From assembly GCA_034669905.1 (NCBI GenBank), contig JAXMOL010000044.1:1-64000 (forward strand): 64,000 nucleotides of DNA, read 5' to 3'. A program made the translations under genes and the position numbers. Source of the stretch: Candidatus Hydrogenedentota bacterium (GTDB lineage Bacteria > Hydrogenedentota > Hydrogenedentia > Hydrogenedentales > JAEUWI01). Below, piece after piece: positions 2,888 to 41,971 of the stretch (positions are counted from its first letter, which is position 1; every line of letters begins with the position of its first letter). Below the pieces are notes generated by a model. It was not told where the DNA came from and made no database searches. It worked only from the letters and a program-made list of their open reading frames with translations.

Positions 2888-2892
2888 GATAC

Positions 2893-15366: not shown

Positions 15367-15391
15367 GGTAGGGGCTTTTTTCGGGCGTTGT

Positions 15392-17089: not shown

Positions 17090-17352
17090 CCACAATCTCC
17101 TACCTGCGCGGGGTTTGAACCGCACCCAATTTGGTTAATTTGCTCCGTTTCCACCCCAGGGGCGGCCGATTCCCGGGGGGAATCCGTGCGTTTGGGCTAT
17201 TATAGGATTAATTGACGCAAGATGCGAAATTTGGCTTACGTGATTACCGTATTTACGTGCCGGCGTGTTATCTTTGGAATTGCAGTTGTAACGGTGTATC
17301 ATATAGTAGAAACTCGTACTCCTATAAAGAGAGCAGATACGTGGAGGAAATT

Positions 17353-17592
17353 ATGTCGGAAAATGACCAACTCGCGCGGCAGCGGAGAAAAAAAGACCAA
17401 CACTTGGGCGATACCAATCCCTCGGACATGGTGAAGATGACGGTAACGCTGCCTCGGTCTGTCGCGGCATTCTTGCGTTGGAAGGCCGAAGTAGAGGGCA
17501 TTAAGCGGGATGAGCTGTTGCGCCGCATCGTGACCTATTACGCAAAGAAATTGCGCGAGCGCGATCTGGACACGCCGCCTGTGCTGGACTAG
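17353..17592 (+). CDS. Small ribbon-helix-helix-like DNA-binding protein
   Basis: GGAGG then ATG 17353; VKMTVTLP strand followed by two helices (AFLRWKAEVEG, RDELLRRIV). Confidence 0.65.
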   Translation: MSENDQLARQRRKKDQHLGDTNPSDMVKMTVTLPRSVAAFLRWKAEVEGIKRDELLRRIVTYYAKKLRERDLDTPPVLD

Positions 17593-18338: not shown

Positions 18339-18775
18339 GGGAGTTCGTACATTTCTTTGAGTTTTGCCGCTCGCATATTGAGATTGTCGAAGTTTCCGAC
18401 CCGGCTATCCATTTCGTTGGCATTGGCGGCCATCAACTCTCGCAGGATGTTGTAGCTGGACTGATAGTCCCCTTTACGTTCGTAGCACGTAGCCAATCGT
18501 TCGAGATTGTACCAGTAATTGGGGCCCCATTCACCATAGCGGTCCAGGCTGGTGTTAATAATGTCGATGGAAGCATCCCATTTCCAGAGATGATAGGTGT
18601 AGCCCGCCAGCTTGGTGAGTCCGGCTTCATCCTTCAGATCCTGCTGTTCATCGACGCCGGGGCTGGCTGCGGTGAATTTTCCATACATCCAGTTTACACC
18701 GCCGCTGGTGGCCAACCAGCCGATGGCGACGACGACGGCGATGATGACCGGCCATTTCAGTCCACTTAAATCCAT
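18335..18775 (-). CDS. Membrane-anchored TPR-like hypothetical protein
   Basis: N-terminal TM (WPVIIAVVVAIGWL); YNLERLATCYERKGDYQSSY TPR-like pattern; overlaps rlmB start. Confidence 0.7.
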   Translation of the reverse strand: MDLSGLKWPVIIAVVVAIGWLATSGGVNWMYGKFTAASPGVDEQQDLKDEAGLTKLAGYTYHLWKWDASIDIINTSLDRYGEWGPNYWYNLERLATCYERKGDYQSSYNILRELMAANANEMDSRVGNFDNLNMRAAKLKEMYELP

Positions 18776-18868
18776 GATTGCTCTCCTCCGGTACGGCAAC
18801 GACCTCAAAGGCGATCGTTCCCCAGTGAATGATGGGCTCCGGGGCAGGGTTCCCCGGGGCGTTATGAA

Positions 18869-19213
18869 TTAGAAACCGATGATGGCCCGTCCACGAATGA
18901 CCAGTTCAGATAGGACGGGGATATAGAAAACGGTGGCCACCCAGGCGGTCACCGCGATGATCGCGAGGAGAATGAGCAGTTTGCCGATGAGTCCACGGAG
19001 GCGCACGAAAAAGGAGGAGCGGGCTTTGCCGTCGAGTTCCTTCGCCTGCAGTACGCGGGCTTCGTGGGCCGTTCGGCAGGGCGTCGAACAGAATTTTCCG
19101 GTGGGACCGGTGATTGTGCACTGTGCACAGGTGGACTGACCACATTGCTTACATTTGGACGTGGCGGCTTTACCCGGGTGGTAAACGCACGTCGCCTGAT
19201 CCAGAGTCGTCAT
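18869..19213 (-). CDS. B-box-like zinc-finger membrane protein
   Basis: CVYHP-CKQC-CAQC-CSTPC then a C-terminal TM segment. Confidence 0.75.
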   Translation of the reverse strand: MTTLDQATCVYHPGKAATSKCKQCGQSTCAQCTITGPTGKFCSTPCRTAHEARVLQAKELDGKARSSFFVRLRGLIGKLLILLAIIAVTAWVATVFYIPVLSELVIRGRAIIGF

Positions 19214-19332
19214 AGCCTCTCCCAACAGCACCTTGACGTTTCAGTGCTGCCCTGGGACCACTTTATCAAAAAAGGTGTCATTTTGCACTCCTCAATTGAG
19301 CGTCAGGTCCAAGACTGCCCGTGGCAGGAGGA

Positions 19333-20415
19333 TCAGGACCCCGGGAGGTGGCGGGCGATCCAGGCGCGAAGTCCGGAACCCGTGATGGAATCCAGATCCC
19401 TGCGAAGGGCTTCGGCATCGCCGTATCGCTCACTCCGCTTTTTGAGACACCGTTGAATGACGCTGTCCATCTTTCGTGGGACGCCCGCAGCGAGTCGGGA
19501 GGCGGGGGTGTATTGACCGACGGGGAGCTTCCCGGTCAGGAGCTGATAGAGTATGACGCCCACGGCGTAGAGGTCGGCCCGCTTGTCGATCTGGAGGGGG
19601 TTGGTCCGTTGTTCGGGTGCCTGGTAGTGGGCGGTTCCGACGGCCATCCGCGAAAAAGCCGGGTTGCTTTGGTCCAGCAGTTTGGCAAGTCCGAAGTCCA
19701 GCACCGTAACATGACCCTGCTCATCCCGCATGATGTTTTGCGGCTTCAGGTCACGGTGAATGGTGGTGCGGTGGGCATAGGACAGGGCGTCACAGAGCTG
19801 GTGGGCGATGTCCAGGACTTCCTCCAGTGGCAGTTGGCCTCCCTGTGATTTCAGGTGCTTGTAGAGGGTTTCGCCTGGGACCAGGGCCATGGTGAAGAAT
19901 TGCATGCCCGAATCAAAATCGACGCCGAGGTCGTGGACGCGCACAATATTCTGGTGGGCGAGCCGTTGGGATATTTTGGTTTCGATGAGAAATCGCCGTT
20001 GCGCCTGGGGGTTGGACAGGAGACGGGGCAGCATGACTTTCAGTGCGCGGCGTTCCTTGAGGTGGGTATCCTTGACCAGGTATACGGCGCCCATGCCACC
20101 GAAGCCCAATTGTTTGAGGATTTTGAAGCGGCGATTGATGACGATGCCCGGGCGCAAGTCGACCGAACGTTGGTCCGTGGTGAGCTTTTCCGGGCGCGCT
20201 GTCGCGAATTGTTTGAGGATGCGGGCTTCGTTGAAGCCCTCGAAGCTACTGTCTGACGCCGAACTCTCGGACTCGGCCACCGGCTCCCCCTCGTCCTGGG
20301 GAGGCGTTAGCTCGTCTAAAGGTGAACGGTTTGATTCTGATTCCATGGAAGGGTTATCGCCTCTGTGGTGAGATTGCCGTGGACCCGGGGAAATCTCACG
20401 GGGTTTCCCTGACAT
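19333..20415 (-). CDS. Hanks-type Ser/Thr protein kinase (soluble, no sensor domain)
   Basis: LGFGGMGAVY, ALK, HRDLKPQN, DFG, APE; alternative start 20346. Confidence 0.92.
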   Translation of the reverse strand: MSGKPREISPGPRQSHHRGDNPSMESESNRSPLDELTPPQDEGEPVAESESSASDSSFEGFNEARILKQFATARPEKLTTDQRSVDLRPGIVINRRFKILKQLGFGGMGAVYLVKDTHLKERRALKVMLPRLLSNPQAQRRFLIETKISQRLAHQNIVRVHDLGVDFDSGMQFFTMALVPGETLYKHLKSQGGQLPLEEVLDIAHQLCDALSYAHRTTIHRDLKPQNIMRDEQGHVTVLDFGLAKLLDQSNPAFSRMAVGTAHYQAPEQRTNPLQIDKRADLYAVGVILYQLLTGKLPVGQYTPASRLAAGVPRKMDSVIQRCLKKRSERYGDAEALRRDLDSITGSGLRAWIARHLPGS

Positions 20416-20650: not shown

Positions 20651-21331
20651 ATGGCCGATGTAGATGAAATTCGTGCGTACGTTGAGTCGCACCCTGATGA
20701 CCATAAGCAACGCTGGCGCCTGGCGAAGAAACTCTATAGCGCCTGGGACTACCGATCGGCGTTGGAGCACCTGATTGTCCTGCGGGAGGTGTGGCCCGAT
20801 CAGGTGCCCGTCCTGCGATACCTCGCGGCTACCTATTACCGCCTCGGAAAATACGAAGAAGCCGAGCGGGAGTTGAAGCTGGCACTCAAAGACCATCCGG
20901 ACGAATACTCCTTGCTGGAACAGCTTGCAAAGGTCTATGAAGGGGCCGGGCGGACGGACGATGCCATTGACGCCTGGACCAAGGTCCAGGAGATACGGCC
21001 GAGCAAGACGGCGGAGGAGGCGTTGGAGCGGCTGGGGATGGCTATGGGTACGATGGCGTCTACGATGGCCACCAATGTGCCGGAGATGAGCAGTCACGGC
21101 AACGAGACCGTCATGAAGTGTCCTCATTGCGGGGAGAGCAATGACGTATTCAGCAAGCGGTGCTCGCGTTGCCACGGTGATTTTGCAACGGTGGAGAAAG
21201 CGGTATCTCCGCCGGAGGAAGAGCCTCTTCCCCACACGGGTAGTGCGGGCGTGGTCTTCGTCCTGAGCTTTATCGTCGTCGCCGGCGCGGCGGCGGCAAT
21301 CTTTTATTGGCTTACGCAATCCAGTCAATAG
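20651..21331 (+). CDS. TPR + zinc-ribbon protein with C-terminal TM anchor
   Basis: Three TPR-like repeats, CPHC...CSRC, hydrophobic C-terminus. Confidence 0.85.
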   Translation: MADVDEIRAYVESHPDDHKQRWRLAKKLYSAWDYRSALEHLIVLREVWPDQVPVLRYLAATYYRLGKYEEAERELKLALKDHPDEYSLLEQLAKVYEGAGRTDDAIDAWTKVQEIRPSKTAEEALERLGMAMGTMASTMATNVPEMSSHGNETVMKCPHCGESNDVFSKRCSRCHGDFATVEKAVSPPEEEPLPHTGSAGVVFVLSFIVVAGAAAAIFYWLTQSSQ

Positions 21332-21546: not shown

Positions 21547-21702
21547 ATGTTGACCAACGGAACTAGCGGCACGCAGGCACCCAAAGCAGCATTCAGTGAT
21601 TTTGATTTTGTACGGATCGTGATTGATTTCATTGGCGATCTGGCGACCTCGCTGAACGCACTGCTGGTGTTTATTCAAAACGTTCTCAACTTCGGGTCCT
21701 GA
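21547..21702 (+). CDS. 51-aa small amphipathic peptide (below ORF-track cut-off)
   Basis: GGAGG at 21536-21540, 6 nt before ATG; MLTNGTSGTQAPKAAFSDFDFVRIVIDFIGDLATSLNALLVFIQNVLNFGS; hairpin GTCCTG-AA-CAGGAC over the stop. Confidence 0.7.
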   Translation: MLTNGTSGTQAPKAAFSDFDFVRIVIDFIGDLATSLNALLVFIQNVLNFGS

Positions 21703-22048: not shown

Positions 22049-23995
22049 ATGAAAAAGCGCTTCATGTCCAGAGTGAATGGACGATCTGTGGCGGCTTCCC
22101 GTCTTTCAGTCGCGATGCTCTTAGTGACATCTTTCGTCTCGCAGGTCTCTGCCGAGGACGCCGCACCGGAAGGGGAAGCGCCCGCAGGTGAGAATGTCCA
22201 CGAGTCACTGTATAAGGGAGAAGAGGGGAAACCCTATTACCCTTCTGCCAGCGAATGTAAGCAGTGTCACCCCGACCACTACCGGGAATGGGCGGTATCA
22301 CCCCACGCGTATGCGCAGATGAGCCCGGTTTTCAACGCGATGCATGCGAAGATTCTCAAGTTGACCAACGGAACAAACGGCGACTTTTGCATCCGTTGTC
22401 ACACCCCGGTGGGGATGAATCTGTCCGAAGATATTTTCATGAGTAACATCGACCGGAATCCCACCTCCCGCGAGGGGGTGACCTGTGTGGTGTGTCACCG
22501 GATTAACAAGCCTTTCGGCAAGATCAGTGGCCGTATCGCCTTGCAGGACGGTGATCTGTCCGAGGCTATTTTCGGCCCCAAAGGCAATCCCCAGTTTGCG
22601 GAAGCCTTTGGTGACGAGATCACGAACAAGTTTGGTGAAGGCAAGGTTCACGCCGAAACGAAGCCCTTCTATCAGTTGCAGGATTCCGGATTTTGTGGCA
22701 CGTGTCACGACGTAAACCTTCTGAACGGTTTCCGATTGGAAGAGGCCTTCAGCGAGTTTAAGCAGAGCCCGGCCTCGCGCAATGGGGTGACGTGTAGCGA
22801 CTGCCACATGGGTAAAACGCCGGGCAAGTTTTCGGGCGACAAAGAGACGAACTACGATCTGAAGCAGATTGCGAAGATTGGTGCCAAGTGGGTCGGTGAA
22901 GAGCGGAAGAAAACCAACCACCGCTTTGCCGGACCGGATCACTCGGTAATTCACCCGGGTATCTATCCCCACAATGACAACGCGGCCGAGTTTGCGACCA
23001 TCCGCGAGTGGTTGACCTTCGACTACCAGGCTGGGTGGGGCACGGACCAGTTTGAAGAAGAAGATGAGCCTGCCCGCCAGGAAGCGGGTAAAGGTACGGC
23101 CTTCCCACAGCGCTGGGAAAATATCGACGAGCGTTATGAAGCCCGGGACATCATCAATGAGCAGCTAGAGCTCCTGGAAGAATATCAGCAGGAGCGCCTG
23201 GCGGTTCTTCAGGCGGGCTATGGCATCGGCGACTTTGAAGTAAAGAAAGCGTCCTCAAAGAAGGGGCTCGCATTCCGGATCGGCGTGGAGAATCTTACCG
23301 ATGGACACAGTGTGCCGACGGGATTCATCGCGGAGCGGGTCGTTTTCCTTCAGGTGGAAGTAAAGAACGAAGCGGGCGAGACCGTATTTATTTCGGGTGA
23401 CCTTGACCCCAACTTTGACGTACGCGACTTGCACTCCCTGTTCGTACACAATCGGGAACTTTCCCTCGATCAGCAACTCTTCACGCTTCAATCCAGCTTT
23501 ATTACCCGCAACGTGCGTGGTACGGAGCGCGAGCAGGTGCTGGCTATCAACTTTTCACCGAGCCCCTTGCCCTTCCTGCGTCCGTCGCGATTTGCTGCAA
23601 CGCTTACGGGCCGTCCCGGTGGTGCGCGAATTCACAAGAAAAATATCACGCCCCTGGACAGCCGTTGGGCCGAATATCGGGTAGGCAAGAAGAAGCTGAC
23701 CGGCGCGGGTACCTATACAGTGACCGCCAAGCTGCTTGCCGGAATGGTGCCGGTAAATCTGATTGACGAAATTAAGGACGTAGGCTTCGACTATGGCATG
23801 AGTGCTCACCAGGTCGCGCTTGGCGTTCGGTTTGGTGTGGGCGATGTATTGGATGCCGAAGGCAACCGATTGAATCGCAAACACATTGATACACTGATTG
23901 AGGAACATCGGGAAGAGGAACTCAAAGACTTGTTTGGTGTGACGGGTGGGCATTCCCTCATCGCGCAGCAAGAATATGAGATCGTTGTGGAGTAA
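22049..23995 (+). CDS. Exported pentaheme c-type cytochrome (c554/c552-like N-domain plus C-terminal beta domain)
   Basis: GGAGG then ATG 22049; signal peptide ending VSA; CKQCH, CIRCH, CVVCH, CGTCH, CSDCH. Confidence 0.9.
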   Translation: MKKRFMSRVNGRSVAASRLSVAMLLVTSFVSQVSAEDAAPEGEAPAGENVHESLYKGEEGKPYYPSASECKQCHPDHYREWAVSPHAYAQMSPVFNAMHAKILKLTNGTNGDFCIRCHTPVGMNLSEDIFMSNIDRNPTSREGVTCVVCHRINKPFGKISGRIALQDGDLSEAIFGPKGNPQFAEAFGDEITNKFGEGKVHAETKPFYQLQDSGFCGTCHDVNLLNGFRLEEAFSEFKQSPASRNGVTCSDCHMGKTPGKFSGDKETNYDLKQIAKIGAKWVGEERKKTNHRFAGPDHSVIHPGIYPHNDNAAEFATIREWLTFDYQAGWGTDQFEEEDEPARQEAGKGTAFPQRWENIDERYEARDIINEQLELLEEYQQERLAVLQAGYGIGDFEVKKASSKKGLAFRIGVENLTDGHSVPTGFIAERVVFLQVEVKNEAGETVFISGDLDPNFDVRDLHSLFVHNRELSLDQQLFTLQSSFITRNVRGTEREQVLAINFSPSPLPFLRPSRFAATLTGRPGGARIHKKNITPLDSRWAEYRVGKKKLTGAGTYTVTAKLLAGMVPVNLIDEIKDVGFDYGMSAHQVALGVRFGVGDVLDAEGNRLNRKHIDTLIEEHREEELKDLFGVTGGHSLIAQQEYEIVVE

Positions 23996-24079
23996 CCTGG
24001 ACTGTACGTAAAGGTGTTGCACGCGTTCCCTGGCTGACCAATTAGGGGCCGTGCAAGTCGGTTACAGCGGAGGGAAGCA

Positions 24080-25951
24080 ATGCTGAGAAAACGTCATACA
24101 TCCATTTTGGTGCTCGCAGTGGGCGGAGCTTTGGGCCTGTTGGCTCCTGACGCTCACGGTGCGGCAGAGAGTAAGCTCTCTCAGAAGCCGATCCCGTTGC
24201 AGACAGAGGCCTATGCGCTGTTTGCCGTAGAGGATATTGCCGACTACGAAGGGCTCTTGACGAAGCTTAAGGCGGGAGCCGACCAGCCGGAAACACCGGC
24301 GGGACGGGTGTGGCAATTCCTGAGTCCTGAGCTCCGGGAAGAGTTTAACGCCCTGGCCGACGGGGCGGAGTTGGAGCGCAATGTCCGTTATCGCATGATC
24401 AACGGGCTGAATGCCGTGCTTCGTTATCCCACCTTGTACGATGCCGCCGCCTTTGCCAGTGTCACGCTGCCGGATGACTTGAAGGCGGATCTGGAGTCTG
24501 AGATGGCCGGACTCGGTCCGGTTGATGCAACGGCCCGGAACCGCGAATTACTTCGCCTGTCGTTCCCGGATGAGATCCTCGAGAGCCAGGTACGGCCGTT
24601 CCCGAAGCGTCCGAAGACCCTTCGGCTCTTTGGGGACGACTTTCTGAACCACGGGAACATCCAGCAGGGCTTCAAGATTCCGACGGGTGCTGTCTGGCAA
24701 CCTTCCATGTTTGTCTACGGCACGCTTCGCACGGCCTGGCAGTATGAAGAGACTGGCGTGCGCCTTCCGCCGAACACGAACGTGGCCGGTCCCCCTATTG
24801 ATCGGGGTGAGGCCAAGATAGAGGAAGTCGCGACGCGTCTGGATCTCTTTTTCAATCTGGCGTTGACCCCGACCGAACGTATCGTGCTGGGACTACGTCC
24901 CTTTGATCACAACGGTAATTTTAACGGCTACCGTTGGCAGGTGCCGAATCTTACCAATAGAGACGATTGGTATCTCCGGGGTGATGCCGATATCCAGCAA
25001 CTCTTCTTCGAAGGGGACCTGGGCGAGATTTTCCCCCGTATTGACAAGAATGACACCGGCGCGGTCGATATCGGATTTTCTGTCGGTCGGCAGCCCCTCT
25101 TCTTCCAAGAGGGTATCATTATCAATGATGTGGTGGATTCGCTGGGCCTGACGCGGAACAACGTGCTGGTTGGAGAAGCGACCAATATCCGCACCACGGC
25201 ATTGTGGGGTTGGGACGATGTACACCGGGGCGTGGGACCAGACAGCCGTCGCCGCCAGGGTGCCCATCTCTTCGCCTTATTCAGCAGCATTGATTTCCCG
25301 AAGACCACCTTGGATTTTGATCTGGCCTACATCAACGACAATGAGACGACCCGCTATCTTGACAACGGGACGATTCTTCGTGAGGGTGGTGACCAGTTTA
25401 ACGTAGGTATGAGCTACATTCAGCGGATAGGTCACATCAACACGGCATTCCGCTTCAATCACTCCGAACGGACCAGCGGCCGCGACACCATCCACTCCAA
25501 CTCGGGTTCGGTGTTCCTCGCGGAGGCTTCCTGGACGCCACCGCATGGCTATGACTTGGTTTACTCCACGGTCTTTGCTGTGAACGATCACTACCAATCC
25601 ATCGCCCGCGACCCGGCAACGGGTGGTCCCCTGGGTCGGGTTGGCATTCTCTTCGAATCTCCGGGTATCGGCTTTGTCGGCGCGCCCATCGAGAATACCA
25701 CCGACCACGACAGTGTCGGTGGCGCAATCGGGTACCAGAAATTCTTTGATGAGCAGCGTAAGCAGGTCATTCTTGAGGTGGCTGGTCGGACCGATTTTGA
25801 CGGTTCTGATCGAGGTCGCCTGGGGGTCATGGCACGGTATCAGCAAGCCTTTAAGACCCGTTACGTGTGGCGGGTGGATGCCTACTATGTTTCCCGCGAG
25901 TCGCTCGATGAGAAGCGTGGTATCCGCACCGAGTTTGTTGTTCAGTTCTAG
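24080..25951 (+). CDS. Probable outer-membrane beta-barrel protein with N-terminal helical extension
   Basis: Signal peptide ending AHG; alternating amphipathic strands in the C-terminal two-thirds; ends IRTEFVVQF (terminal Phe); no Cys. Confidence 0.75.
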   Translation: MLRKRHTSILVLAVGGALGLLAPDAHGAAESKLSQKPIPLQTEAYALFAVEDIADYEGLLTKLKAGADQPETPAGRVWQFLSPELREEFNALADGAELERNVRYRMINGLNAVLRYPTLYDAAAFASVTLPDDLKADLESEMAGLGPVDATARNRELLRLSFPDEILESQVRPFPKRPKTLRLFGDDFLNHGNIQQGFKIPTGAVWQPSMFVYGTLRTAWQYEETGVRLPPNTNVAGPPIDRGEAKIEEVATRLDLFFNLALTPTERIVLGLRPFDHNGNFNGYRWQVPNLTNRDDWYLRGDADIQQLFFEGDLGEIFPRIDKNDTGAVDIGFSVGRQPLFFQEGIIINDVVDSLGLTRNNVLVGEATNIRTTALWGWDDVHRGVGPDSRRRQGAHLFALFSSIDFPKTTLDFDLAYINDNETTRYLDNGTILREGGDQFNVGMSYIQRIGHINTAFRFNHSERTSGRDTIHSNSGSVFLAEASWTPPHGYDLVYSTVFAVNDHYQSIARDPATGGPLGRVGILFESPGIGFVGAPIENTTDHDSVGGAIGYQKFFDEQRKQVILEVAGRTDFDGSDRGRLGVMARYQQAFKTRYVWRVDAYYVSRESLDEKRGIRTEFVVQF

Positions 25952-25996
25952 TTCGTTCATGTACGAATGGCGCCTTAACTGCATAGGAGAAACGGA

Positions 25997-27295
25997 GTGG
26001 AACTGATCGCTCTGGCTCTTGGCCTGATTGTTGTTGCGATGCTGGTGCTCCAGGTACCTGTGTTGGTTTACGGTACCCTCCAACGTTCCCGCGCGGCCCA
26101 GGTGCAGCGCCGGATGGATTACCGCGCGTGGAAGCTCCGTCTTCAGGCCGCGGAAGCACAGCTTGAGAAGGCGGCGTCGAACCAACTCTCCTGGTCTGGC
26201 TGGCGCAAGTTTGAAGTGCGCAAGAAAATTATCGAAAACAAGGCCGGCGACATCTGTTCGTTTTACTTCTATCCCCATGATCGAAAGAAACTTCCAGCCT
26301 TCAATCCCGGCCAGTTTCTAATGTTTCGGGTGGATATTCCCGACCCGGACAATCCAGGTGAAACGATTGAAGAAACCCGGTGCTATTCCCTGTCGGACAG
26401 CCCCAACCCGCGTTACTATCGTATCAGCGTTCGCCGCGTGCCGGCGCCCCGTGATCAACCGGATATACCGCCGGGTCTCGTTTCGGGCTACCTTCATGAG
26501 CACATCAATGAAGGGGACTTGATTGACGTCCAGGCCCCCAGCGGTGAGTTCTTCCTTGATCCGGATCAGGAAACGCCGGTCGCACTGTTGGCCGGTGGAG
26601 TGGGGGTTACGCCCATTCTTTCCATGTGCAACACGCTGATTGATCGGAAGAGCAGCCGAGAGGTCTGGATTTACTTCGGTGTTCGCAATCCCGATGACCT
26701 GGTCATGTTGCAGAATTTTGAATACGCCGCTGGTCACCTGAAAAACGCCAAAGTCTTTATCTGTTTCAGTGGCGAGATGCCCGAAGGTGTGGAAGACGGC
26801 ACGGTGGCAGAGAGTGGGGTGATTTACAAGCGGGGTCGTGTTGATAGTGCCATGTTGAAGGCGACCATGCCTGGCAATAACTACGCGTACTATATCTGTG
26901 GTCCCGAAGTCATGATGAAAACCCTCGACAAGGACCTTCAGGCGTGGGGTGTTCCGAAGGACAAGATTAACTGGGAGGCCTTTGGCGAAAGCGCGGCCCC
27001 GGCACCCGCGGCGGTTCCTGCGGGACAGGCGCTGACGATCAATTATGGTGCGTCGGGTAAATCGGTGAATTGGCAGGGCGAAAAGAGTATTCGCGCTGCG
27101 GCCAAGGCCAACCGTTTTAAAGAGAAGAAGATCAAATATGCCTGCGGACAGGGAAAGTGTGGTTGCTGCCACACCGCGCTGAAGAGTGGCGAAGTTGCCT
27201 ACTTGGATGTGCAGCCAGCCTTTCCCGGTCTGCAGGAGGGCTATTGCCTGCCTTGCATCGCGACTCCGAAGACATCGATCGAGTTGGATGCCTGA
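25997..27295 (+). CDS. Membrane-anchored FAD/NAD(P)-binding oxidoreductase with C-terminal [2Fe-2S] (FNR/PaaE-Hcr type)
   Basis: N-terminal TM; RCYSL, GLVSGYLH, AGGVGVTP, YICGP, EAFG; CGQGKCGCC...CLPC. Confidence 0.9.
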   Translation: MELIALALGLIVVAMLVLQVPVLVYGTLQRSRAAQVQRRMDYRAWKLRLQAAEAQLEKAASNQLSWSGWRKFEVRKKIIENKAGDICSFYFYPHDRKKLPAFNPGQFLMFRVDIPDPDNPGETIEETRCYSLSDSPNPRYYRISVRRVPAPRDQPDIPPGLVSGYLHEHINEGDLIDVQAPSGEFFLDPDQETPVALLAGGVGVTPILSMCNTLIDRKSSREVWIYFGVRNPDDLVMLQNFEYAAGHLKNAKVFICFSGEMPEGVEDGTVAESGVIYKRGRVDSAMLKATMPGNNYAYYICGPEVMMKTLDKDLQAWGVPKDKINWEAFGESAAPAPAAVPAGQALTINYGASGKSVNWQGEKSIRAAAKANRFKEKKIKYACGQGKCGCCHTALKSGEVAYLDVQPAFPGLQEGYCLPCIATPKTSIELDA

Positions 27296-27339
27296 TTTCG
27301 TGTAGATGAGAAGTGTGTGGTTTTAACGGGAGTGAAAAC

Positions 27340-28377
27340 ATGATGGTTGACTGGAAGCAAATCAAGAGGCTTGCGACCCGGAGTGGGATGGCGTGTGTGC
27401 TGGGTGCCACCGTGTACTCGGGTACAGCCACGGCGGCAGATGTGCTGAGCTACGAGCCGCACAAGATTTTGGAAGACGAAAAAGGCAAGTGCGAGCAGTG
27501 CCACGAAAACGCGGTACTCGCCTGGGAGCAGTCGACGCACAAGAAAACGTATGACGAGCTTCACCTTCGTGACGAAGCAAAAGCGGTGTTGGAGCGCCTG
27601 GGTAGTAAAGGGAGTATTCGCCGCAACGACGAATGCGTGCAGTGCCACTACACTCAGACTGCCTCCGAAGCCGGTGGGCGTGCCAAGACGGTGATGGGCG
27701 TTTCCTGCCAGCGTTGCCACGGTGGCGCAGTGGATTGGTTGGACGTGCACCAGGATACGGAAGGGATGCCTGATCGGGCTGCCCGCCTGGCCAAGGCTGA
27801 AAGTCTCGGCATGCGTCTTACCGACGACATTTATACCCTGGCCATGAACTGCTTCCAGTGCCACACGGTACCGAAAGAAGCCTTGGTCAACAAGGGACAG
27901 CACCCCGCAGGCAGCGATTTTGAATTGGTCGCATGGAGCCACGGCGAAGTGCGCCACAATTTCCTTAACGATGATCCCAAAGCGCGCGCCGAGCAGGACA
28001 CGAACAATGAGTCCAGTGCCGAAACGAAGCAGCTCTTCTATGTGGTTGGCAAGACGCTGGATCTGGAGTTTGCACTTCGGGGCCTTTCGTCAGCGACGGA
28101 AGAGGGTACGTACCTGACGGCCATGGGTGAACGTGCGCAGAATGCCTACGATGCCCTGAAGGCGTTGGGCGGTATGGATAGCGTGCTCTCCCAGGTTCCG
28201 ATGGACGGCGACAAGGTCAAGGTGGCCGTGAATAACGCCGGAGAATACACGGGTGCTGCGGATGGCATTCGCAAGATTGCCAAGACCATCGAATCCGACA
28301 AGGGTAAATTCAGCACCGCGTTGAGTGCGGCCGGTTCGAAATTGCCGTCCAGCTATCAGGGCGAAGCCTACGAATAA
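27340..28377 (+). CDS. Exported tetraheme c-type cytochrome (c554-like)
   Basis: GGAG then ATG 27340; signal peptide ending ATA; CEQCH, CVQCH, CQRCH, CFQCH. Confidence 0.9.
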   Translation: MMVDWKQIKRLATRSGMACVLGATVYSGTATAADVLSYEPHKILEDEKGKCEQCHENAVLAWEQSTHKKTYDELHLRDEAKAVLERLGSKGSIRRNDECVQCHYTQTASEAGGRAKTVMGVSCQRCHGGAVDWLDVHQDTEGMPDRAARLAKAESLGMRLTDDIYTLAMNCFQCHTVPKEALVNKGQHPAGSDFELVAWSHGEVRHNFLNDDPKARAEQDTNNESSAETKQLFYVVGKTLDLEFALRGLSSATEEGTYLTAMGERAQNAYDALKALGGMDSVLSQVPMDGDKVKVAVNNAGEYTGAADGIRKIAKTIESDKGKFSTALSAAGSKLPSSYQGEAYE

Positions 28378-28393
28378 GCACTGAAAGGTTCCC

Positions 28394-30199
28394 TTGTCTA
28401 CCATTACGCAAGAAATCGAGCGTGCGGATGGCGCTGCGGCGCCATCCGCTCCCGCTGATGCGGGAGAAAAGCGGTTGACCCGTTGGGCGAAGCCCTTCGG
28501 CAAAATGACCGAGTTAGATATTCTCGACGTACTGCAGATGGATCCCTTCCGGTCCATTTGCGATACCCTTGAGGCCGCCAAGAAACCCCAGTTCGTTTCC
28601 TTCGGCGTACCGGTTTCCATCTACGGCATCCTCCAGAACGATACGCGGATCCGGACGTACAAGCCCGGCGAATTCGTAATTCGAAAGGATGACTACGGGA
28701 ACTCGGCATTTTTCCTGTTGGAAGGCGAACTGCGGGCTGTCATCCACCCGGAATTACCCTCTCGCGTACTGGGTCACCGTGAGCGAAAAAGCATTGGCTT
28801 CGTCGGGGCCTTTCTATCGCGCATACGCGACATGATTTTTCCGCCCGCCCGAGAATACCGCGCGGCGGGTACCAAAGCCCGAAAGGCCGAAGAGCCGGGC
28901 CTGGGCGTCAGCGCCGAGCAGTTGGCCGCGATTCTGGATCCCCAACAGTATCAGACGGCGCCCCTGCGTGTCGGTGCTTTCTTTGGGGAAATTGGCGCCA
29001 TTTATCGTATGCCGCGGGAAGTGTCCATCGTGGCGTCAGAGCCGGCGCGGGTACTGGAAATCCGGTGGCAGGGTCTCCGCGATCTCATGGAGGCCGATGA
29101 GGGCATTGAGCATCATATCGACAATATGTATCGGGAGCGCTCCCTGAAAGGGACCCTTGAGTCCATTTCCGTGTTCAAATCCCTTCCGGAAGAAGTGCTT
29201 TCCCAGGTAAAATTCAATACGTACGGGAAGTATGACGAATGGTCTTCTGAGTACATCGGAATGTCTCAGGCGGAGAAGACCAACGTTATCGATCAGGAAG
29301 AAATGATCGCCCAGGAAGGGGACTATCCCAACGGGATTCAAGTGGTTCGCGCGGGATTTGCCCGGGAGAGTAAGCGCTATGGCCACGGGCACCAGACGCT
29401 GAACTATCTTGGTGGTGGCCAGATATTCGGGCTGAAAGAAGCCCTCTACAATTGGCAGCATCCCAACAACCCCATACCTTTTCAGCACAGCCTCCGGGCC
29501 ATCGGCTATGCCCATATCCTGACGATTCCCACCCATCTGGTGGAGAAGTACGTACTGCCGACCCTGCTGAAAGAGCAGCCCAACTTCCCCCGATATCGGA
29601 GTAAAGACATCCGGGCGGGCAAGACCGATACGTCCAATACCCTTCGTGACGATATAGGGGCCGATCTGTTCGAGTTCTTCGCGGAGAATCGTCTGCTGAA
29701 CGGCACGAAGACCATGTTGATCAATATGGACCGCTGTACCCGATGTGACGATTGCGTCCGGGGTTGCGCGTCTGCTCACGACGGGAATCCCCGCTTCGTC
29801 CGACACGGACCCGTCCACGACAATATCATGGTGGCCAATGCCTGCATGCACTGTGTGGATCCGGTGTGTATGATCGGGTGCCCCACGGGCGCGATTTCCC
29901 GGGAGAGCCTTGAAGGGCAGGTCGTCATCAACGAGGACGCCTGTATTGGTTGCGCGACCTGTTACAGCAACTGCCCGTATGATTCGATTCGGATGATTAC
30001 GGTACGAAATAATCGCGGGGCCTTTCGGATCGCCACGACGGGCGACTCGGCTGGAGCTCCGATCTATAAGGCAACGAAATGTGATCTGTGTGTGGATCAG
30101 AAGGGTGGCCCCTCGTGCGTTCGGGCCTGCCCCCATGACGCGCTGCAGCGGGTAAACATGCAGGATGTAGACGCACTGGCCAGGTTTATAAAACGGTGA
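28394..30199 (+). CDS. Cyclic-nucleotide-binding domains fused to a 4x[4Fe-4S] (DmsB/NrfC-type) domain
   Basis: CNB1: VIRKDDYGNSAFFLLEG...FFGEIGAIYRMPREVSIVA; CNB2: IAQEGDYPNGIQVVRAG...QIFGL; CTRCDDCVRGC, CMHCVDPVCMIGC, CIGCATCYSNC, CDLC...CVRAC. Confidence 0.9.
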   Translation: MSTITQEIERADGAAAPSAPADAGEKRLTRWAKPFGKMTELDILDVLQMDPFRSICDTLEAAKKPQFVSFGVPVSIYGILQNDTRIRTYKPGEFVIRKDDYGNSAFFLLEGELRAVIHPELPSRVLGHRERKSIGFVGAFLSRIRDMIFPPAREYRAAGTKARKAEEPGLGVSAEQLAAILDPQQYQTAPLRVGAFFGEIGAIYRMPREVSIVASEPARVLEIRWQGLRDLMEADEGIEHHIDNMYRERSLKGTLESISVFKSLPEEVLSQVKFNTYGKYDEWSSEYIGMSQAEKTNVIDQEEMIAQEGDYPNGIQVVRAGFARESKRYGHGHQTLNYLGGGQIFGLKEALYNWQHPNNPIPFQHSLRAIGYAHILTIPTHLVEKYVLPTLLKEQPNFPRYRSKDIRAGKTDTSNTLRDDIGADLFEFFAENRLLNGTKTMLINMDRCTRCDDCVRGCASAHDGNPRFVRHGPVHDNIMVANACMHCVDPVCMIGCPTGAISRESLEGQVVINEDACIGCATCYSNCPYDSIRMITVRNNRGAFRIATTGDSAGAPIYKATKCDLCVDQKGGPSCVRACPHDALQRVNMQDVDALARFIKR

Positions 30200-31020
30200 A
30201 ATATTATACCCGCAGACGACTTAAAGCACTGGTGATACTTGGTGTCATCACGGTGGCCTTTCTGGTGTTCTTTGATGGGTTTCGCGTGACCTTGCGCAAC
30301 CCCCATGTGCTCTCAGGATGGTTTTTTCTGGCCGTCATGACCTTTCTCGCGCTGTTTAACGTGAGAAAGAAGTTTCCCGTTCCGCCCCTGGGACCTTCTC
30401 GGCTCTGGTTGCAGCTGCATATTTACGGTGGCGCCTTTACCCTGGTGCCCTACTTTTTTCATGCGGGCTTTGAAGTGCCCACGGGCGTGCTTGAAAAGTC
30501 GCTGGCGCTCCTCTATTTTGGTGTGATGCTCAGTGGGGTTGTGGGCCTGATTATGACCCGTGTTTTTCCACGGCGCCTGACGGCAAATGGGGGAGAGGCG
30601 GTCTTTGAGCGGCTCCCGGAACATCGACGCCGAATCAAAGAGGAAGTGGATCGGCTGGCCGAAACGTCCATCGTCGATACCCAGTCCACCACGATTTCCA
30701 AGTTTTACACGAAGCGGCTGCGCAGTTACTTTGATGGGCCACGCCATATGTTTAACCATATTTTCGAGGTGGCCCCCCCCTTAAATCGCATGATCGGGGA
30801 GATAGAGGATCAGTACCGCTATCTCAATGAAGACGAGCAGAAAATCCTCGCGAAGATTGCGGACTATGTGCGGCAGAAAAACCGGCTGGATTACCAGTAT
30901 GCCCTCCAGTTTGCCTTGAAGACCTGGCTTTTTCTGCACATTCCCCTGACGAGCGGCCTGTTTATTCTTATTATTGTTCATGTTTGGTTGACCCATGCAT
31001 TTTCCGGAAGAGCGCTCTAA
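30196..31020 (+). CDS. Five-TM membrane protein, putative di-heme b cytochrome (ferric reductase/NOX-like)
   Basis: His75/His89 in TM3 and His248/His262 in TM5 (both H-x13-H); GTGA and TAATG overlaps with neighbours. Confidence 0.75.
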   Translation: MKYYTRRRLKALVILGVITVAFLVFFDGFRVTLRNPHVLSGWFFLAVMTFLALFNVRKKFPVPPLGPSRLWLQLHIYGGAFTLVPYFFHAGFEVPTGVLEKSLALLYFGVMLSGVVGLIMTRVFPRRLTANGGEAVFERLPEHRRRIKEEVDRLAETSIVDTQSTTISKFYTKRLRSYFDGPRHMFNHIFEVAPPLNRMIGEIEDQYRYLNEDEQKILAKIADYVRQKNRLDYQYALQFALKTWLFLHIPLTSGLFILIIVHVWLTHAFSGRAL

Positions 31021-33899
31021 TGGCTGATTCACACGACAAGGAAATCTATAAGCGCCCCTACAATCGCCCCAACGAGCACTGGGTGTGTGGCCGTTCAGCA
31101 GAAGGACGCCCCTGTCCCCACGGCCCATCACGTCGGGGCCGTTGTGAGGCCCGTTCCGAGTGTGTACCAGCCAAAATTGGCGACCGTTGGGTCTGCACCC
31201 GCCCCGAGCAATACGGAGGCGCGTGCGACAGTCCGGCCCTTGAAGATCCGGCCTTTGGGCCGATGGAGCGAGATGGAGTCGGGGTTTGCTGCAAGCAGGT
31301 CCATTGCACGCCCCAACGGAGCCTGCGTGCCCTTCGTGGCCGTATTAGCGTTGTGCTCTGTCTTGTCATCGTCGGGGTGTTGTTGACGGCGCTCGGCAGC
31401 GGCTGGCGGAATCAATTGCTCTCCCCCGGACCACTCACCTTGAATCACCAGGGTGCTTCCATGGCATCCGTGGAAAAAATGGAGCACGGAAAACTCGGGG
31501 CGGAAGGCAGCAGCGAAGAAAGTTGTCAGATCTGCCACGCGAATTTCGAGGGGGGCCTTGAGGGGCTTCTGCTGTCGGCGATCACTAAGAAGGAAACAGA
31601 ACCGCAGAGCGTCCAATGTATGGCTTGCCATCAGGAGGATGTGGGTGCGGATGCCTTGTTCGCCCACGCGCTTTCTCCCGATGCCCTGGCACTTCACACT
31701 GCGGAAGCGAAACAGGAACCCTTCGACGGGGCGAAGCCCTTGTCCTTGGCCCTGGCCGCCTTTTCACCAGGTGTGAAGCTGGGGGAATCGGGTGAGTTGG
31801 CCTGTGCGGCCTGTCACCGCGAGCACAATGGTACCTTTTTCGACCTGCGGCGTATCGACAATCAGAAGTGTCAGACCTGTCACGTCAAACAATTCAAGAG
31901 TATCGGAGACGGGCACCCGGATTTTTCGACATTGGCTTCCACGGCGGGTTATGACTATCCCTACCGCCGTCGGACCCGGCTCATCTACGACCATGAGCGG
32001 CATGAAACCAATTACTTTCAGAAGGAAGAAAACCGGAATCATGCACCCGCCGATTGCACTTCGTGCCACGAGATTGATGGTGATGCCTTTACCACGCGCC
32101 TGAAACCATTTGAGGAAATGTGCGCGGCGTGCCACAACAGCAACATCGTGTCGGCACGCGACGAATGGATTCATGTCTACGGGTTTCCGTCCCTCGAGTC
32201 GGATGTGTATGAAATCCTGGAAGACGAGCTTGAATTACCGCCAGTGCCCCGCACGGCGGGCAAGTCCATGTCTCCATTCATGATGCTGTTGCTCGCCGGC
32301 TTTAATGCGCAGGATGGGGAGAGTGCCGCGACTTTTGCCGAAGACCTGGCCATGGTCCTCGAGTTCGAAGGCGACCTCTCCGGTATCGCCTACGACGAAG
32401 ACCCCGAGATTGTGGGGCGCCTTTTTAAGGGCATGGAGTATATTAAAGGTGCCGCGTCCAATGAAGCGCAGGGCGGCCTCCGACGGATCGTCGAGGAACA
32501 ATTGGAACGGCTTACGGGCGAGGTGGTTGATCCCCGGGTGCTGGATTCCATGTTCGGATTCCCGAAAGAGGGGAGCACGGTGGACAAGGTCATCGAGGAT
32601 GTTTCCCGAAAAGATATCATCGAGATGTCGGGGTGGCATGTGGAGGAAAGTGGCTTTCGTCTCGACCCCGCCAGTTGGAAGGCGACCTTGGAAAGTGTCG
32701 AAAGTTATGTGGCGTTGAAGGAGGCGATCGCGGACGGCGAAGCAGGTTCCTATGCCACCATTTTCGAATTCTTTTCCGACTTCAATGCATTCCAAGAATG
32801 GTTTGCCGGTCATTTTACCATTGACGGCGAAGACTGGGTGCTGCTGGAGACGGGTAAGAAAGCGAAGAACAAGGAGTGGAAGGCCCTCATCCTCGCCATG
32901 GTTGATAGCGAGGCACCCGCGGAAGAAACGCCGTCGGAAGATGAGCCGACGGAAAGCGACGACGCAGCCGAGGAGACGGACTCGTCTGAGGGCGCCGATT
33001 CCGAGGAGAGCACCGAAACGGCCGCAACTCCGAGCGACGCTGGAAGCGAGGCGGGCGAAGCGTTTGTGGCCTGGCTGGGTAGTCAGTCGAAAGTTAAGAA
33101 ATGGCTGGATGACGTTGCCGATATCTCTGGGGAACGGTGGACCTTGCGTGCGCCCCGATCGCTATACTATCGGCCTATTCAACACGCAGACCCCTTCACC
33201 ACGGCCTGGCTTGATTTTACGGCAACGCTCTATGCGAAGAGCCCTGCCGCGGCGTTGGTCTTTGACGAGCTGAGCGGACGGGCGACCGGTTCGGCCATCG
33301 GTTCCTGCATGAAGTGTCACAGTATCGATGCGGAGAAGCAGGGGACCAATGATGTGCGCGTCAAGGTGAACTGGAAGAGCGGTTCATCGGAGCGGGGCTT
33401 TACCAAGTTCAAGCACACCCCACACCTGAAGCTGATGAACTGTGCCGAATGCCATCGGGCGGATTGGGTGCCGGCTGTCCGGGATCAGATAAATCTGGCC
33501 AAAGCGGCTTCCGCCGAAGAAGAAACGTCGGTCGAAGACGGGGCCGAGCCAGTGGATGGCGAGGCGGCAGCGGCAGACGCCGCGCCAGAGGAAGGGGCGA
33601 GCGAAGTGGCCCCGGAACCGGCGATGAGTTACCTCGATAGTTTCAAGGCGAATGATTCGGGTCTGGAATTGGGCGTCAATTTCTCGAACGCCCAGGGTTC
33701 CAATGCGTTCGTGAGTAGTTTTCGCCCGATTTCAAAGGATGATTGTGCCCGTTGCCATGAGAAAAGTAAGGCCGGTGACAGCTGCCTCATTTGCCACAAT
33801 TATCATATTCAGGAGCGGGGACGGTCCATGGGTGTACAGTCCTTGCGCGACCTGATTACCATGAAAACGGACGCTTCGGACCCGTCGGAGACGCCGTAA
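31020..33899 (+). CDS. Membrane-anchored decaheme c-type cytochrome with Cys-rich N-terminal domain
   Basis: TAATG coupling at 31020; one TM; CQICH, CMACH, CAACH, CQTCH, CTSCH, CAACH, CMKCH, CAECH, CARCH, CLICH. Confidence 0.9.
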   Translation: MADSHDKEIYKRPYNRPNEHWVCGRSAEGRPCPHGPSRRGRCEARSECVPAKIGDRWVCTRPEQYGGACDSPALEDPAFGPMERDGVGVCCKQVHCTPQRSLRALRGRISVVLCLVIVGVLLTALGSGWRNQLLSPGPLTLNHQGASMASVEKMEHGKLGAEGSSEESCQICHANFEGGLEGLLLSAITKKETEPQSVQCMACHQEDVGADALFAHALSPDALALHTAEAKQEPFDGAKPLSLALAAFSPGVKLGESGELACAACHREHNGTFFDLRRIDNQKCQTCHVKQFKSIGDGHPDFSTLASTAGYDYPYRRRTRLIYDHERHETNYFQKEENRNHAPADCTSCHEIDGDAFTTRLKPFEEMCAACHNSNIVSARDEWIHVYGFPSLESDVYEILEDELELPPVPRTAGKSMSPFMMLLLAGFNAQDGESAATFAEDLAMVLEFEGDLSGIAYDEDPEIVGRLFKGMEYIKGAASNEAQGGLRRIVEEQLERLTGEVVDPRVLDSMFGFPKEGSTVDKVIEDVSRKDIIEMSGWHVEESGFRLDPASWKATLESVESYVALKEAIADGEAGSYATIFEFFSDFNAFQEWFAGHFTIDGEDWVLLETGKKAKNKEWKALILAMVDSEAPAEETPSEDEPTESDDAAEETDSSEGADSEESTETAATPSDAGSEAGEAFVAWLGSQSKVKKWLDDVADISGERWTLRAPRSLYYRPIQHADPFTTAWLDFTATLYAKSPAAALVFDELSGRATGSAIGSCMKCHSIDAEKQGTNDVRVKVNWKSGSSERGFTKFKHTPHLKLMNCAECHRADWVPAVRDQINLAKAASAEEETSVEDGAEPVDGEAAAADAAPEEGASEVAPEPAMSYLDSFKANDSGLELGVNFSNAQGSNAFVSSFRPISKDDCARCHEKSKAGDSCLICHNYHIQERGRSMGVQSLRDLITMKTDASDPSETP

Positions 33900-34146: not shown

Positions 34147-34548
34147 TTGCACAGAGGCAAACATTTACTAATCGACTGTCACAATGTGTCCCGTGAAGTG
34201 TGTCTGGATGACAAGCTGGTACTTCGGGCGATGGCCCGTGGTGCCGAGCGTGCCGGCGCGACCGTGATTTCGCAAGTTCGTTATCACTTTGGACACAACT
34301 CCCCCCCCGGATTCACCGCCGTAGTTCTGTTGGATGAGAGCCACTGCTCTGCCCACACCTATGCGGACGACGGCCTGATCGCCATGGACGTGTTCACGTG
34401 TGGCTCCACCGATCCCCTCAGGGTCTTGGAGTGTATTCGTGAAGAAGTGGACCTTGGTGATGTCATCATTCGCACGATGCCCCGCTTTGCCGAAGAGGAA
34501 AACGGTTTCCTCCAGGCACCGATGGGCATTGAATGCGCCGCAGTCTAA
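34147..34548 (+). CDS. speD: Pyruvoyl-dependent S-adenosylmethionine decarboxylase family proenzyme
   Basis: GKHLLID, VVLLDESHCSAHTY (E-S self-cleavage site), DVFTCG; TTG start 9 nt after GAGGAGG. Confidence 0.88.
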   Translation: MHRGKHLLIDCHNVSREVCLDDKLVLRAMARGAERAGATVISQVRYHFGHNSPPGFTAVVLLDESHCSAHTYADDGLIAMDVFTCGSTDPLRVLECIREEVDLGDVIIRTMPRFAEEENGFLQAPMGIECAAV

Positions 34549-34569
34549 ACGGCGGGAGTTACGAATCCA

Positions 34570-35655
34570 TTGTCTGAACGCACGATGCACGACGGGCGGG
34601 CCGACGGCCTGACTCCGTTGCAAAGTCTGAAGCTCTCTGAGCTCAATTCATTTTCTGAGATGGTTCGCGCCATGGGCCGCACGGCCTTTGGCGGGCGCCA
34701 GCTCGGGAACGCGCTGGATGTTGCGCTGGCCATGGCGATAGACGAGTCTTGCACGACCGTGCTGACCTTGTCGGGTGCTATGACCGTGGCGAAGCAGGGT
34801 CAGATCATTTGCGATATGATTGATTCGGGCCTGGTGGACGCGGTGGTTGCAACGGGTGCCCTGGTGGCACACGGTGTGACAGAGAGCATCGGGCTGACCC
34901 ACTACGCGGTGGATCCCCAGTCGGATGATGCCGCGCTCTTTGCCAAGGGCTACAATCGTATCTACGATACCCTGGAAATGGAATCCAACCTCAATGACGT
35001 GGCCGAGTTGGTCGCCGATGTGTTGGCCCATACCGAGCCCGATGACGGCGTGTGGTGTTCCTCTCGTTTTTGTCGTGCCGTGGGCGAGCGGTTGGACGAA
35101 TTGGATCAGGGGCCCGGAATTCTGCGGAGTGCCTGGCGCAAGCGGGTACCGGTGTTTATTCCCGCCTTTACGGACAGTGAGATGGGCCTGGATTTTTCCA
35201 CCCACGTCATGGCCCAGTCGGTGGCGAAATTGCAGAAAGAACTCGGGCGCGATCTAACGCCCGACGAAGTCTTTCAGGCGGTTCCGGCATTTAATCCTTT
35301 CCTCGATATGCAGGAATATGCCCGTCTGATCGGTAAGACCGAGCGGATGGGAATTATTACGGTCGGTGGTGGTGTGCCCCGTAACTGGGCGCAGCAAGTG
35401 GGCCCCTATTACGACATCACCTCGGCGCGGCTCGATATTCCGCTTCCCGCGCCCCGCTTTCAGTATGGCGTGCGCATTTGTCCGGAGCCGGTCCACTGGG
35501 GCGGGCTTTCGGGGTGCACCTATTCCGAGGGTGTCAGCTGGGGCAAGTTTGTACCTCCGGCGGAAGGCGGCAAGTATGCGGAAGTATACGCCGACGCCAC
35601 CGTGGTGTTGCCGCTGTTGATGAAGGCCGTTTTTGAAGAGATGGGCCACGTCTGA
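34570..35655 (+). CDS. Deoxyhypusine synthase-like protein (possible homospermidine synthase)
   Basis: TAFGGRQLG, YNRIYD, PAFTDSE, GGGVPRNW, GGLSGCTYSEGVSWGK, ADAT. Confidence 0.9.
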   Translation: MSERTMHDGRADGLTPLQSLKLSELNSFSEMVRAMGRTAFGGRQLGNALDVALAMAIDESCTTVLTLSGAMTVAKQGQIICDMIDSGLVDAVVATGALVAHGVTESIGLTHYAVDPQSDDAALFAKGYNRIYDTLEMESNLNDVAELVADVLAHTEPDDGVWCSSRFCRAVGERLDELDQGPGILRSAWRKRVPVFIPAFTDSEMGLDFSTHVMAQSVAKLQKELGRDLTPDEVFQAVPAFNPFLDMQEYARLIGKTERMGIITVGGGVPRNWAQQVGPYYDITSARLDIPLPAPRFQYGVRICPEPVHWGGLSGCTYSEGVSWGKFVPPAEGGKYAEVYADATVVLPLLMKAVFEEMGHV

Positions 35656-41875: not shown

Positions 41876-41971
41876 GTAAGAGACTCCGTTGAGAATGTTG
41901 TTTCATACTGAAGAAGGCATCGTACGCCAAGGGGCAGTCGCGGGCCTGTTATTCCGCGACGATGGACCCAA

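Follow-up and report, generated by a model that had tools for sequence, protein, structure and literature searches.

A ptd/PCC4 operon in Candidatus Hydrogenedentota: a possible gated NAD(P)H-to-periplasm reductase with a predicted solute porin

Two published descriptions come closest to the locus analysed here. In 2017 He et al. described, as PCC4, a porin with 4-, 5- and 10-heme periplasmic cytochromes and no extracellular cytochrome, together with an IMP that has five TM helices, SGXXG on TM4 and WX3HX13H on TM3 and TM5; in subgroup II a pfam13247 FeS gene lies directly upstream of the IMP gene, and subgroup I is without an FeS gene (PMC5566968, accessible part). PCC4 was reported from Zetaproteobacteria and Hyphomicrobium of metal-oxidising settings, and the cytochrome b/FRD histidine pattern, also present in PtdF below, was read as quinone-reactive (PMC5566968). 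Elbon, Stewart and Glass gave the name ptdABCDEFG to a cluster encoding, in this order, a pentaheme cytochrome with a beta-sandwich, a porin, an FAD/NAD(P) oxidoreductase, a tetraheme cytochrome, a protein with CNB and 4Fe-4S domains, a ferric-reductase-like TM protein and a decaheme cytochrome (bioRxiv 10.1101/2023.11.21.568154). Its function was termed 'completely unknown', ptdAB were reported to be highly transcribed in NO-transforming marine bacteria, and iron reduction was raised as a possible role; PCC4 is not mentioned in the accessible part of that text (0 hits; 10.1101/2023.11.21.568154).

The window, a stretch of 64,000 nucleotides on contig C44 of a 7.4 Mb, 95.7% complete Candidatus Hydrogenedentota genome, carries an operon that matches this twice-published cluster, so that the first-pass annotation, which had taken the cluster as undescribed, has to give way to the accessible parts of both reports. 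The copy is a new member of a real, conserved, twice-named and uncharacterised operon, and no biochemically characterised system of such composition was found in the literature searched, as had been supposed. Seven ORFs on the + strand (22049..33899; Table 1) follow one another with gaps of 84, 45, 44 and 16 nt and then overlaps of 4 nt (GTGA) and 1 nt (TAATG), which is the co-directional spacing first annotated; the GC content of the operon is that of its surroundings.

Table 1. Positions of the ptd genes and of features within them, numbered along the window.
Feature	Position	Strand	Description
PtdA	22049..23995	+	periplasmic pentaheme cytochrome c with C-terminal Ig-like domain; candidate terminal enzyme
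PtdA Glu231 codon	22739..22741	+	invariant in 23/23; at or next to the position of the MccSep heme-2 ligand Cys239
PtdB	24080..25951	+	predicted outer-membrane beta-barrel (residues 175-623), solute-porin type
PtdC	25997..27295	+	membrane-anchored FAD/NAD(P)H/[2Fe-2S] reductase of FNR / flavohemoprotein-reductase type (Pfam, NCBIfam)
PtdD	27340..28377	+	periplasmic tetraheme, cytochrome c554-like; likely shuttle
PtdE	28394..30199	+	cytoplasmic; two CNB domains and four predicted [4Fe-4S] clusters
Phosphate-binding cassette of first CNB domain (FGE...PR)	28982..29032	+	PRE here, PRT in most relatives
PtdF (PCC4 IMP)	30196..31020	+	five-helix membrane protein with two WX3HX13H motifs and SGxxG; predicted diheme b
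PtdG	31020..33899	+	membrane-anchored periplasmic decaheme, 6+4 hemes around an acidic spacer
PtdG cytoplasmic N-terminal domain	31086..31307	+	8 Cys in two 4-Cys repeats, invariant in 70/70

The seven gene types stand in the same order as in ptdABCDEFG, an order shared with the marine alpha- and gammaproteobacterial loci L064 and L071, and PtdA is linked to T. tepidum c552 in both cases. The present host, in contrast, lies outside the groups named in the accessible text of Elbon et al., who count two [4Fe-4S] clusters where 16 invariant cysteines here indicate four; the 8-Cys domain, the fusions and the second output module discussed below are absent from the part of their text that was searched. 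Likeness to PCC4 subgroup II, as far as its description is accessible, extends to the porin, the 4-, 5- and 10-heme periplasmic cytochromes and the lack of an extracellular one (localisation predicted from N-termini), to the five helices and the W71-H75-H89, S113GVVG and W244-H248-H262 motifs of PtdF, and to the PF13247 match on PtdE (E 7.4e-10, above cut-off), encoded directly upstream of the IMP. On composition and motifs, not on sequence, PCC4 and ptd are likely the same cluster. The model of He et al. differs in that it envisages inward transfer to the quinone pool, whereas the fusions described here point to NAD(P)H. In the searches made, the following appear to be new: that PCC4 and ptd are likely one cluster, that fusions speak for NAD(P)H coupling, that the model predicts a narrow barrel, that output modules can be exchanged, that PtdG carries the 8-Cys domain, and that a cultured host exists.

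A GTDB scan with PtdE confirmed 415 of 460 stretches, of which the best 80 were kept, a set biased to close relatives; genes in these 80 loci were called with HMMs built from the same loci at a 60-bit cut-off. Among these best 80 of 415 stretches, the closest named PtdE relative is 96% identical and comes from a Ca. Hydrogenedentota MAG. Upstream of the operon lie a Ser/Thr kinase gene (19333-20415, -) and a TPR/zinc-ribbon gene (20651-21331, +), the TPR gene being found likewise upstream of the operon in loci L003 and L004. Upstream of ptdA there is also a 51-residue ORF (21547-21702, +) with a hydrophobic C-terminal half, present at the same position in L003 and L004 (63-67% identity) and without a second copy elsewhere in the genome; it is possibly an eighth, small subunit. 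Downstream, S-adenosylmethionine decarboxylase and deoxyhypusine/homospermidine synthase genes (34147-35655, +) apparently form a separate polyamine unit, and farther on two closely similar 427-residue genes stand in tandem (40592-43255, -).

The reading favoured here, with a probability of roughly 0.5, is a gated reductase that passes electrons from NAD(P)H to the periplasm, where its terminal pentaheme would reduce a small solute admitted through PtdB. Electrons would pass from NAD(P)H to the FAD and [2Fe-2S] centres of membrane-tethered PtdC, from there to the four [4Fe-4S] clusters of PtdE and on to two b hemes of PtdF, ligated by H75/H248 on the cytoplasmic and H89/H262 on the periplasmic side; the anchored decaheme PtdG, the tetraheme PtdD and the pentaheme PtdA would follow in that order. 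Heme 2 of PtdA would be the catalytic site, PtdB an entry pore for the solute rather than a sheath for a wire, and the first CNB domain the gate. Genes, motifs, linkage and fusions are observed, the fold and strand number of the barrel are predicted, and for this scheme we infer cofactor loading, carrier order, direction and PtdA catalysis alike.

Transfer from NAD(P)H to the periplasm is downhill in potential and runs towards the positive side, thereby spending proton-motive force; for inward flow to NAD+ a donor of less than about -450 mV would be required. The outward direction is thus the likelier one, and the first-pass annotation, which had allowed either polarity, was too even on this point. 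Since proton-motive force is spent, the chain would serve detoxification or assimilatory reduction, or act as a redox valve, rather than take part in respiration, and a gate would be explained by the fact that outward flow is not energy-conserving. As to the substrate, the best guess is an oxidant that is small and charged, for instance nitrite or some other oxyanion, with no more than a low probability for any one candidate; nitrogen oxides are hinted at by the high transcription of ptdAB in NO-transforming marine bacteria (10.1101/2023.11.21.568154) and by the c554-like character of PtdD. MsrPQ offers a precedent for the path NADH > flavin > heme b > periplasmic enzyme (PMC12525009), and ExtI with MccSep a pattern for a pentaheme enzyme beside a porin (PMC5877670; PMC13510729).

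The host genome encodes NqrF, two heme-copper oxidases and, as read from ORF starts, Nap- and ACIII-like clusters; the complex I 49-kDa subunit was not found in it. On its contig C1 (142116-150735, L082) a NapC-like 5-heme membrane protein is encoded together with a 10-heme protein that is MtrC-like and begins like a lipoprotein, cytochromes of 8, 14 and 4 hemes, and a barrel-like ORF of 569 residues. That the host respires by other means and possesses this separate NapC-like/MtrC-like/barrel-like cluster favours a gated periplasmic reductase as the role of ptd.

On the cytoplasmic side, Pfam domains bear out the FAD/NAD(P)/[2Fe-2S] reductase and the 16-Cys CNB protein that had been noticed. 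PtdC contains NAD_binding_1, FAD_binding_6 and Fer2; its [2Fe-2S] ligands C383/388/391/420 are kept in 64 of 64 homologues, H392 in 5 of them, and an N-terminal hydrophobic helix in 62. PtdE contains cNMP_binding and Fer4, and its 16 cysteines, invariant in 79/79 sequences, fit four putative [4Fe-4S] clusters of HycB/DmsB type. A canonical binding cassette is present in the first CNB domain only (G198, E199 and R208 each in 78/79); the second is degenerate, with G followed by L/F, a shifted Glu, and Gln in 69/79 where Arg is expected. Thr after the cassette Arg is a feature of cGMP-binding domains. Position 209 is Thr in 63 and Glu in 6 of the 79 PtdE sequences, and the present clade, being among those with Glu, may bind another ligand or none. 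Three class III cyclase domains are encoded in the source genome, and CHASE2 cyclase genes occur in 9/80 loci. In the favoured scheme the first CNB domain would gate the electron chain.

PtdF, by contrast with these Pfam-annotated partners, has no Pfam match in the operon protein. The bis-His character first ascribed to it holds: four histidines are invariant in 47/47 sequences and form two HX13H pairs on TM3 and TM5, as in FRD/NOX-type or cytochrome b561 diheme domains, and the two WX3HX13H motifs occur here and in 77 and 75 of 80 homologues. The family is large (3853 clusters at 50% identity), its matches to Ni_hydr_CYTB (13/47) and Ferric_reduct (4/47) are weak, and no natural cytochrome b is among the fold matches of the helical model (pLDDT 90.5); heme b binding is therefore predicted from the motifs, which counts against the favoured reductase model. 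Its charged ends would fit an N-in topology, which would bring H75/H248 close to the cytoplasm and H89/H262 close to the periplasm.

Fusions are the strongest evidence for the wiring. E and F are fused in three database entries (P0278, P0324, P0325); at locus L094 an FNR-type reductase, Fer2 and a PtdF domain make up one 877-aa ORF with all four histidines kept; and at L081 two [4Fe-4S] sites, a TrxR-like FAD/NAD(P) domain and a PtdF domain share one 753-aa ORF (hhalign 96.8%). In Sphingobium herbicidovorans MH a TrxR-CNB-FeS fusion precedes F- and G-like genes beside a type II module. Because two unrelated pyridine-nucleotide flavoprotein folds occupy one slot, NAD(P)H is favoured over quinone as the partner, and linkage and fusions together support the sequence NAD(P)H > FAD > FeS > heme b > multiheme across the inner membrane that had been proposed at the outset. 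MsrQ, the nearest functional precedent, carries ubiquinone (PMC12525009), and some quinone contact of PtdF is conceivable by analogy. The L094 fusion belongs to a divergent second ptd-like locus (758-9797, G062:C37), in which the C-F fusion has an FHA insert and is accompanied by a kinase-like gene, a long PtdB and a tetraheme.

CxxCH motifs number five in PtdA, four in PtdD and ten in PtdG, in agreement with the earlier count and far above the maxima of 1, 1 and 2 seen in 2000 residue shuffles per protein. A 20th CxxCH sits within the [2Fe-2S] ligand set of PtdC, so the total of 19 c-heme motifs is correct. PtdG has one TM helix at 109-127; eight of its non-motif histidines are conserved in 70/70 sequences, H216 in 61 and H722 in 32, a pattern by which its hemes are likely mostly bis-His. 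For its N-terminal 8-Cys domain no PDB match and no usable Pfam or Atlas match was found; it is a putative metal-binding domain, conceivably an additional FeS relay or a metal site with a regulatory role, and in Sphingobium it is replaced by an FHA-like domain. This domain, the membrane anchor of PtdC and the restriction of the canonical cassette to the first CNB domain are features beyond those first annotated. PtdD matches 1BVB (E 5e-13) and has four further histidines in 30/30.

PtdA, with a signal-like N-terminus without lipobox, matches 5ZE8 (T. tepidum c552; E 5.5e-9, profile E 3.7e-14), NF040886 ExtKL at E 2e-8 and 33 bits, below the cut-off of 250, and MccSep 9WT8 at a profile E of 0.03 only. 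It contains only the ten motif cysteines and has F426 at the position of MccSep Sec325; the register of Glu231 comes from alignments, HMMER placing C239 on L230 and the 5ZE8 Cys aligning to E231. Polysulfide reduction by MccSep chemistry, as accessible in its description, is unlikely for a protein without a His/Cys heme 2 and the catalytic Sec. The weakness of the MccSep match and the missing Cys and Sec weigh against a catalytic PtdA, as do its six invariant non-motif histidines, which by number would be enough for five bis-His hemes and hence for a pure carrier.

The hosts of the best 80 of 415 loci are mostly Verrucomicrobiota, Planctomycetota and Hydrogenedentota MAGs. All seven genes occur together in 19 of the 80, with at least three different gene orders and across several phyla, many of the others being cut by contig ends. 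The co-occurrence across GTDB genomes that the first-pass annotation had proposed to check was found for C, E, F and G in 32 of 34 loci with at least 9 kb upstream and at least 8 kb downstream. Locus L069 is without C, and L024, on a closed Verrucomicrobiae chromosome, has a PtdE homologue without C, F or G within 10 kb; these cases, and PCC4 subgroup I without an FeS gene (as accessible in He et al.), are points against the favoured reductase chain. Type I loci, with A, B or D present, make up 30/80, type II loci 40/80, nearly all Verrucomicrobiota, and 10/80 are left unclassed; none of the 80 mixes both modules. In the 40 type II loci a c554-like triheme is found 38 times, an alternative barrel (P2) 25, a decaheme with LVIVD repeats 21 and an HbpS-like gene 27 times. 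In its type II form (L014, L019, L022, L030; L096:17848-25185) the output module consists of an AlgE-like barrel, an LVIVD decaheme of ~1300 residues, an HbpS-like protein and a c554-like triheme; in Verrucomicrobiota this module is linked to the C-E-F-G core, in Sphingobium to a distant one. No description of it was found in the literature searched. Among 61 relatives, own genome included, F is present in 9 and A in 7, every A genome having F (7/7), and the distribution is patchy even inside the genus (5/8).

PtdB bears directly on the alternative of a complete NAD(P)H-to-exterior wire, in which PtdA or PtdD would sit inside the barrel and reduce extracellular Fe(III), humics or a partner cell, and which is judged unlikely. 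The barrel first suspected for this protein is supported by its model (pLDDT 91), with 18 predicted strands by count on the model; the Porin_1 match is sub-threshold (Pfam, E 0.069). The best matches of the model are all solute porins, and MtrB, which has 26 strands and sheathes a decaheme (24-32 strands being predicted in homologues; PMC7198977; PMC5566968), is in neither list of best 50 matches. A lipobox was found in none of the seven operon proteins. With an 18-strand barrel of solute-porin type and no surface lipoprotein or surface cytochrome encoded among the seven genes, a wire through the outer membrane is weakly supported; of the trans-envelope wire originally proposed it is the inner-membrane part that finds support. 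As modelled, PtdB more likely admits a small substrate than carries a wire to the outside. The bulky non-heme domains on PtdA, PtdD and PtdG and the separate conventional-looking conduit of the host argue in the same direction. Small barrels can, on the other hand, hold a heme, as in Cyc2. A barrel is also co-inherited with the core: B in 24 and P2 in 25 add up to 49/80 loci, and where a barrel is absent nearby one was found elsewhere in 7 of 10 genomes tested, namely the type II barrel in 5/5 and B in 2/5, both times beside A (A and B thus travelling together in 2/2 such genomes); in the other three of these five, of unstated completeness, B was not found, a point against the wire. PtdA-like proteins share their heme arrangement with the nanowire AvECN (PMC13510729), and iron reduction is the possibility raised by Elbon et al. 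in the accessible text. The L081 variant looks like extracellular transfer: its four genes (7898-19709, G029:C4) encode the FeS/TrxR-like/PtdF fusion, a 23-heme cytochrome, a barrel-like protein without Pfam match and a 76-heme cytochrome of 1934 residues. This cluster, which may be related to PCC3, is the best candidate met for a true NAD(P)H-to-exterior conduit, and a PtdF domain beside a 76-heme cytochrome and a barrel-like gene also counts against the favoured periplasmic reductase.

In the model of He et al. electrons from an external donor, such as Fe(II) or Mn(II), reach the quinone pool by way of the cytochromes and the IMP, C and E being side branches or serving reverse electron flow; this model appears improbable for the present operon. 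It draws on the occurrence of PCC4 in Zetaproteobacteria and Hyphomicrobium of metal-oxidising settings, on the HX13H pairs of PtdF, which are those of quinone-reactive cytochromes b, and on subgroup I without an FeS gene (PMC5566968, accessible part). Set against this are at least five ORFs (L081, L094, P0278, P0324, P0325) that fuse the PtdF domain to an NAD(P)H flavoprotein or FeS protein and so indicate a cytoplasmic protein partner for PtdF. Most of the 80 closest hosts, moreover, are Verrucomicrobiota, Planctomycetota and Hydrogenedentota MAGs, to our knowledge not known as iron oxidisers, and reduction of NAD+ by Fe(II) is impossible without energy input.

A redox-sensing or signalling device of little flux, reporting the periplasmic redox state to CNB, FHA or cyclase partners, is more improbable still. 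The two CNB domains on the cytoplasmic face, the FHA-like domain that replaces the 8-Cys one in Sphingobium, the FHA inside the C-F fusion adjoining a kinase-like gene, the CHASE2 cyclase genes (9/80 loci) and the HbpS-like genes (27/40 type II loci) would suit such a device, whereas 19 c hemes and about eight other centres are costly for it, no DNA-binding or kinase output is encoded among the seven genes, and ptdAB are reported to be highly transcribed (10.1101/2023.11.21.568154). Least probable is a loose pairing of a general periplasmic reductant supply (C-E-F-G) with an independent A-B pair that has its own donor: the distance between the A-B pair and the core exceeds 20 kb in G061, in G062 the two are on different contigs, the core is paired with a different module in 40/80 loci, and G016 has F without a strong A match, but the seven genes stand together in 19/80 loci, in at least three orders and several phyla, and all seven A genomes among the 61 relatives also have F.

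The operon type is common, 415 stretches of the GTDB species set encoding PtdE relatives. Both reports, as far as they are accessible, treat it as a possible system for extracellular electron transfer, one with iron oxidation in view and the other with iron reduction or nitrogen cycling. Should PtdB prove to be a solute pore and NAD(P)H the electron source of the chain, PCC4/ptd counts would mislead as markers of metal redox cycling; and if cyclic nucleotides gate ptd, a redox chain would be under direct second-messenger control, for which we know of no bacterial precedent. It is tempting, if speculative, to see in these loci one face of a widespread and so far unrecognised class of second-messenger-gated, quinone-bypassing exporters with a NOX-like diheme core, interchangeable NAD(P)H flavoproteins and opening by cAMP or cGMP; their swappable outputs would include periplasmic enzymes with a solute porin in front of them and, at the other extreme, extracellular wires of 76 hemes. 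The fusions and the cultured host, Sphingobium herbicidovorans MH, make NAD(P)H feeding and cNMP gating testable.

Among established systems, three resemble ptd in part. With MtrCAB, MtoAB and PioAB it shares a barrel gene clustered with multiheme cytochromes, but MtrB has 26 strands against 18 predicted in PtdB, ptd is without a surface cytochrome, and its predicted inner-membrane input is a flavin/FeS/cytochrome b chain, not CymA/NapC (PMC7198977); the MtrA/DmsE family model TIGR03508 reaches 30 and 21 bits on PtdA and PtdD, against a cut-off of 192, and gives no match on PtdG. Like MsrPQ and the NOX/FRD family, ptd would link a cytosolic NADH oxidoreductase through a membrane heme-b protein to a periplasmic enzyme, and unlike them it adds FeS relays, CNB domains, 19 c hemes and a porin (PMC12525009); PtdF is only weakly similar to Ferric_reduct (4/47), and its model has no match to these folds. 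Geobacter ExtI with MccSep/ExtKL provides the likeness of a pentaheme with an Ig-like domain beside a porin implicated in oxyanion uptake (PMC13510729; PMC5877670). PtdA shares the GHxxPxG loop with these proteins and differs from them in having Glu (or Leu) for Cys239, Phe for Sec325 and an insertion of ~100 residues (PMC13510729).
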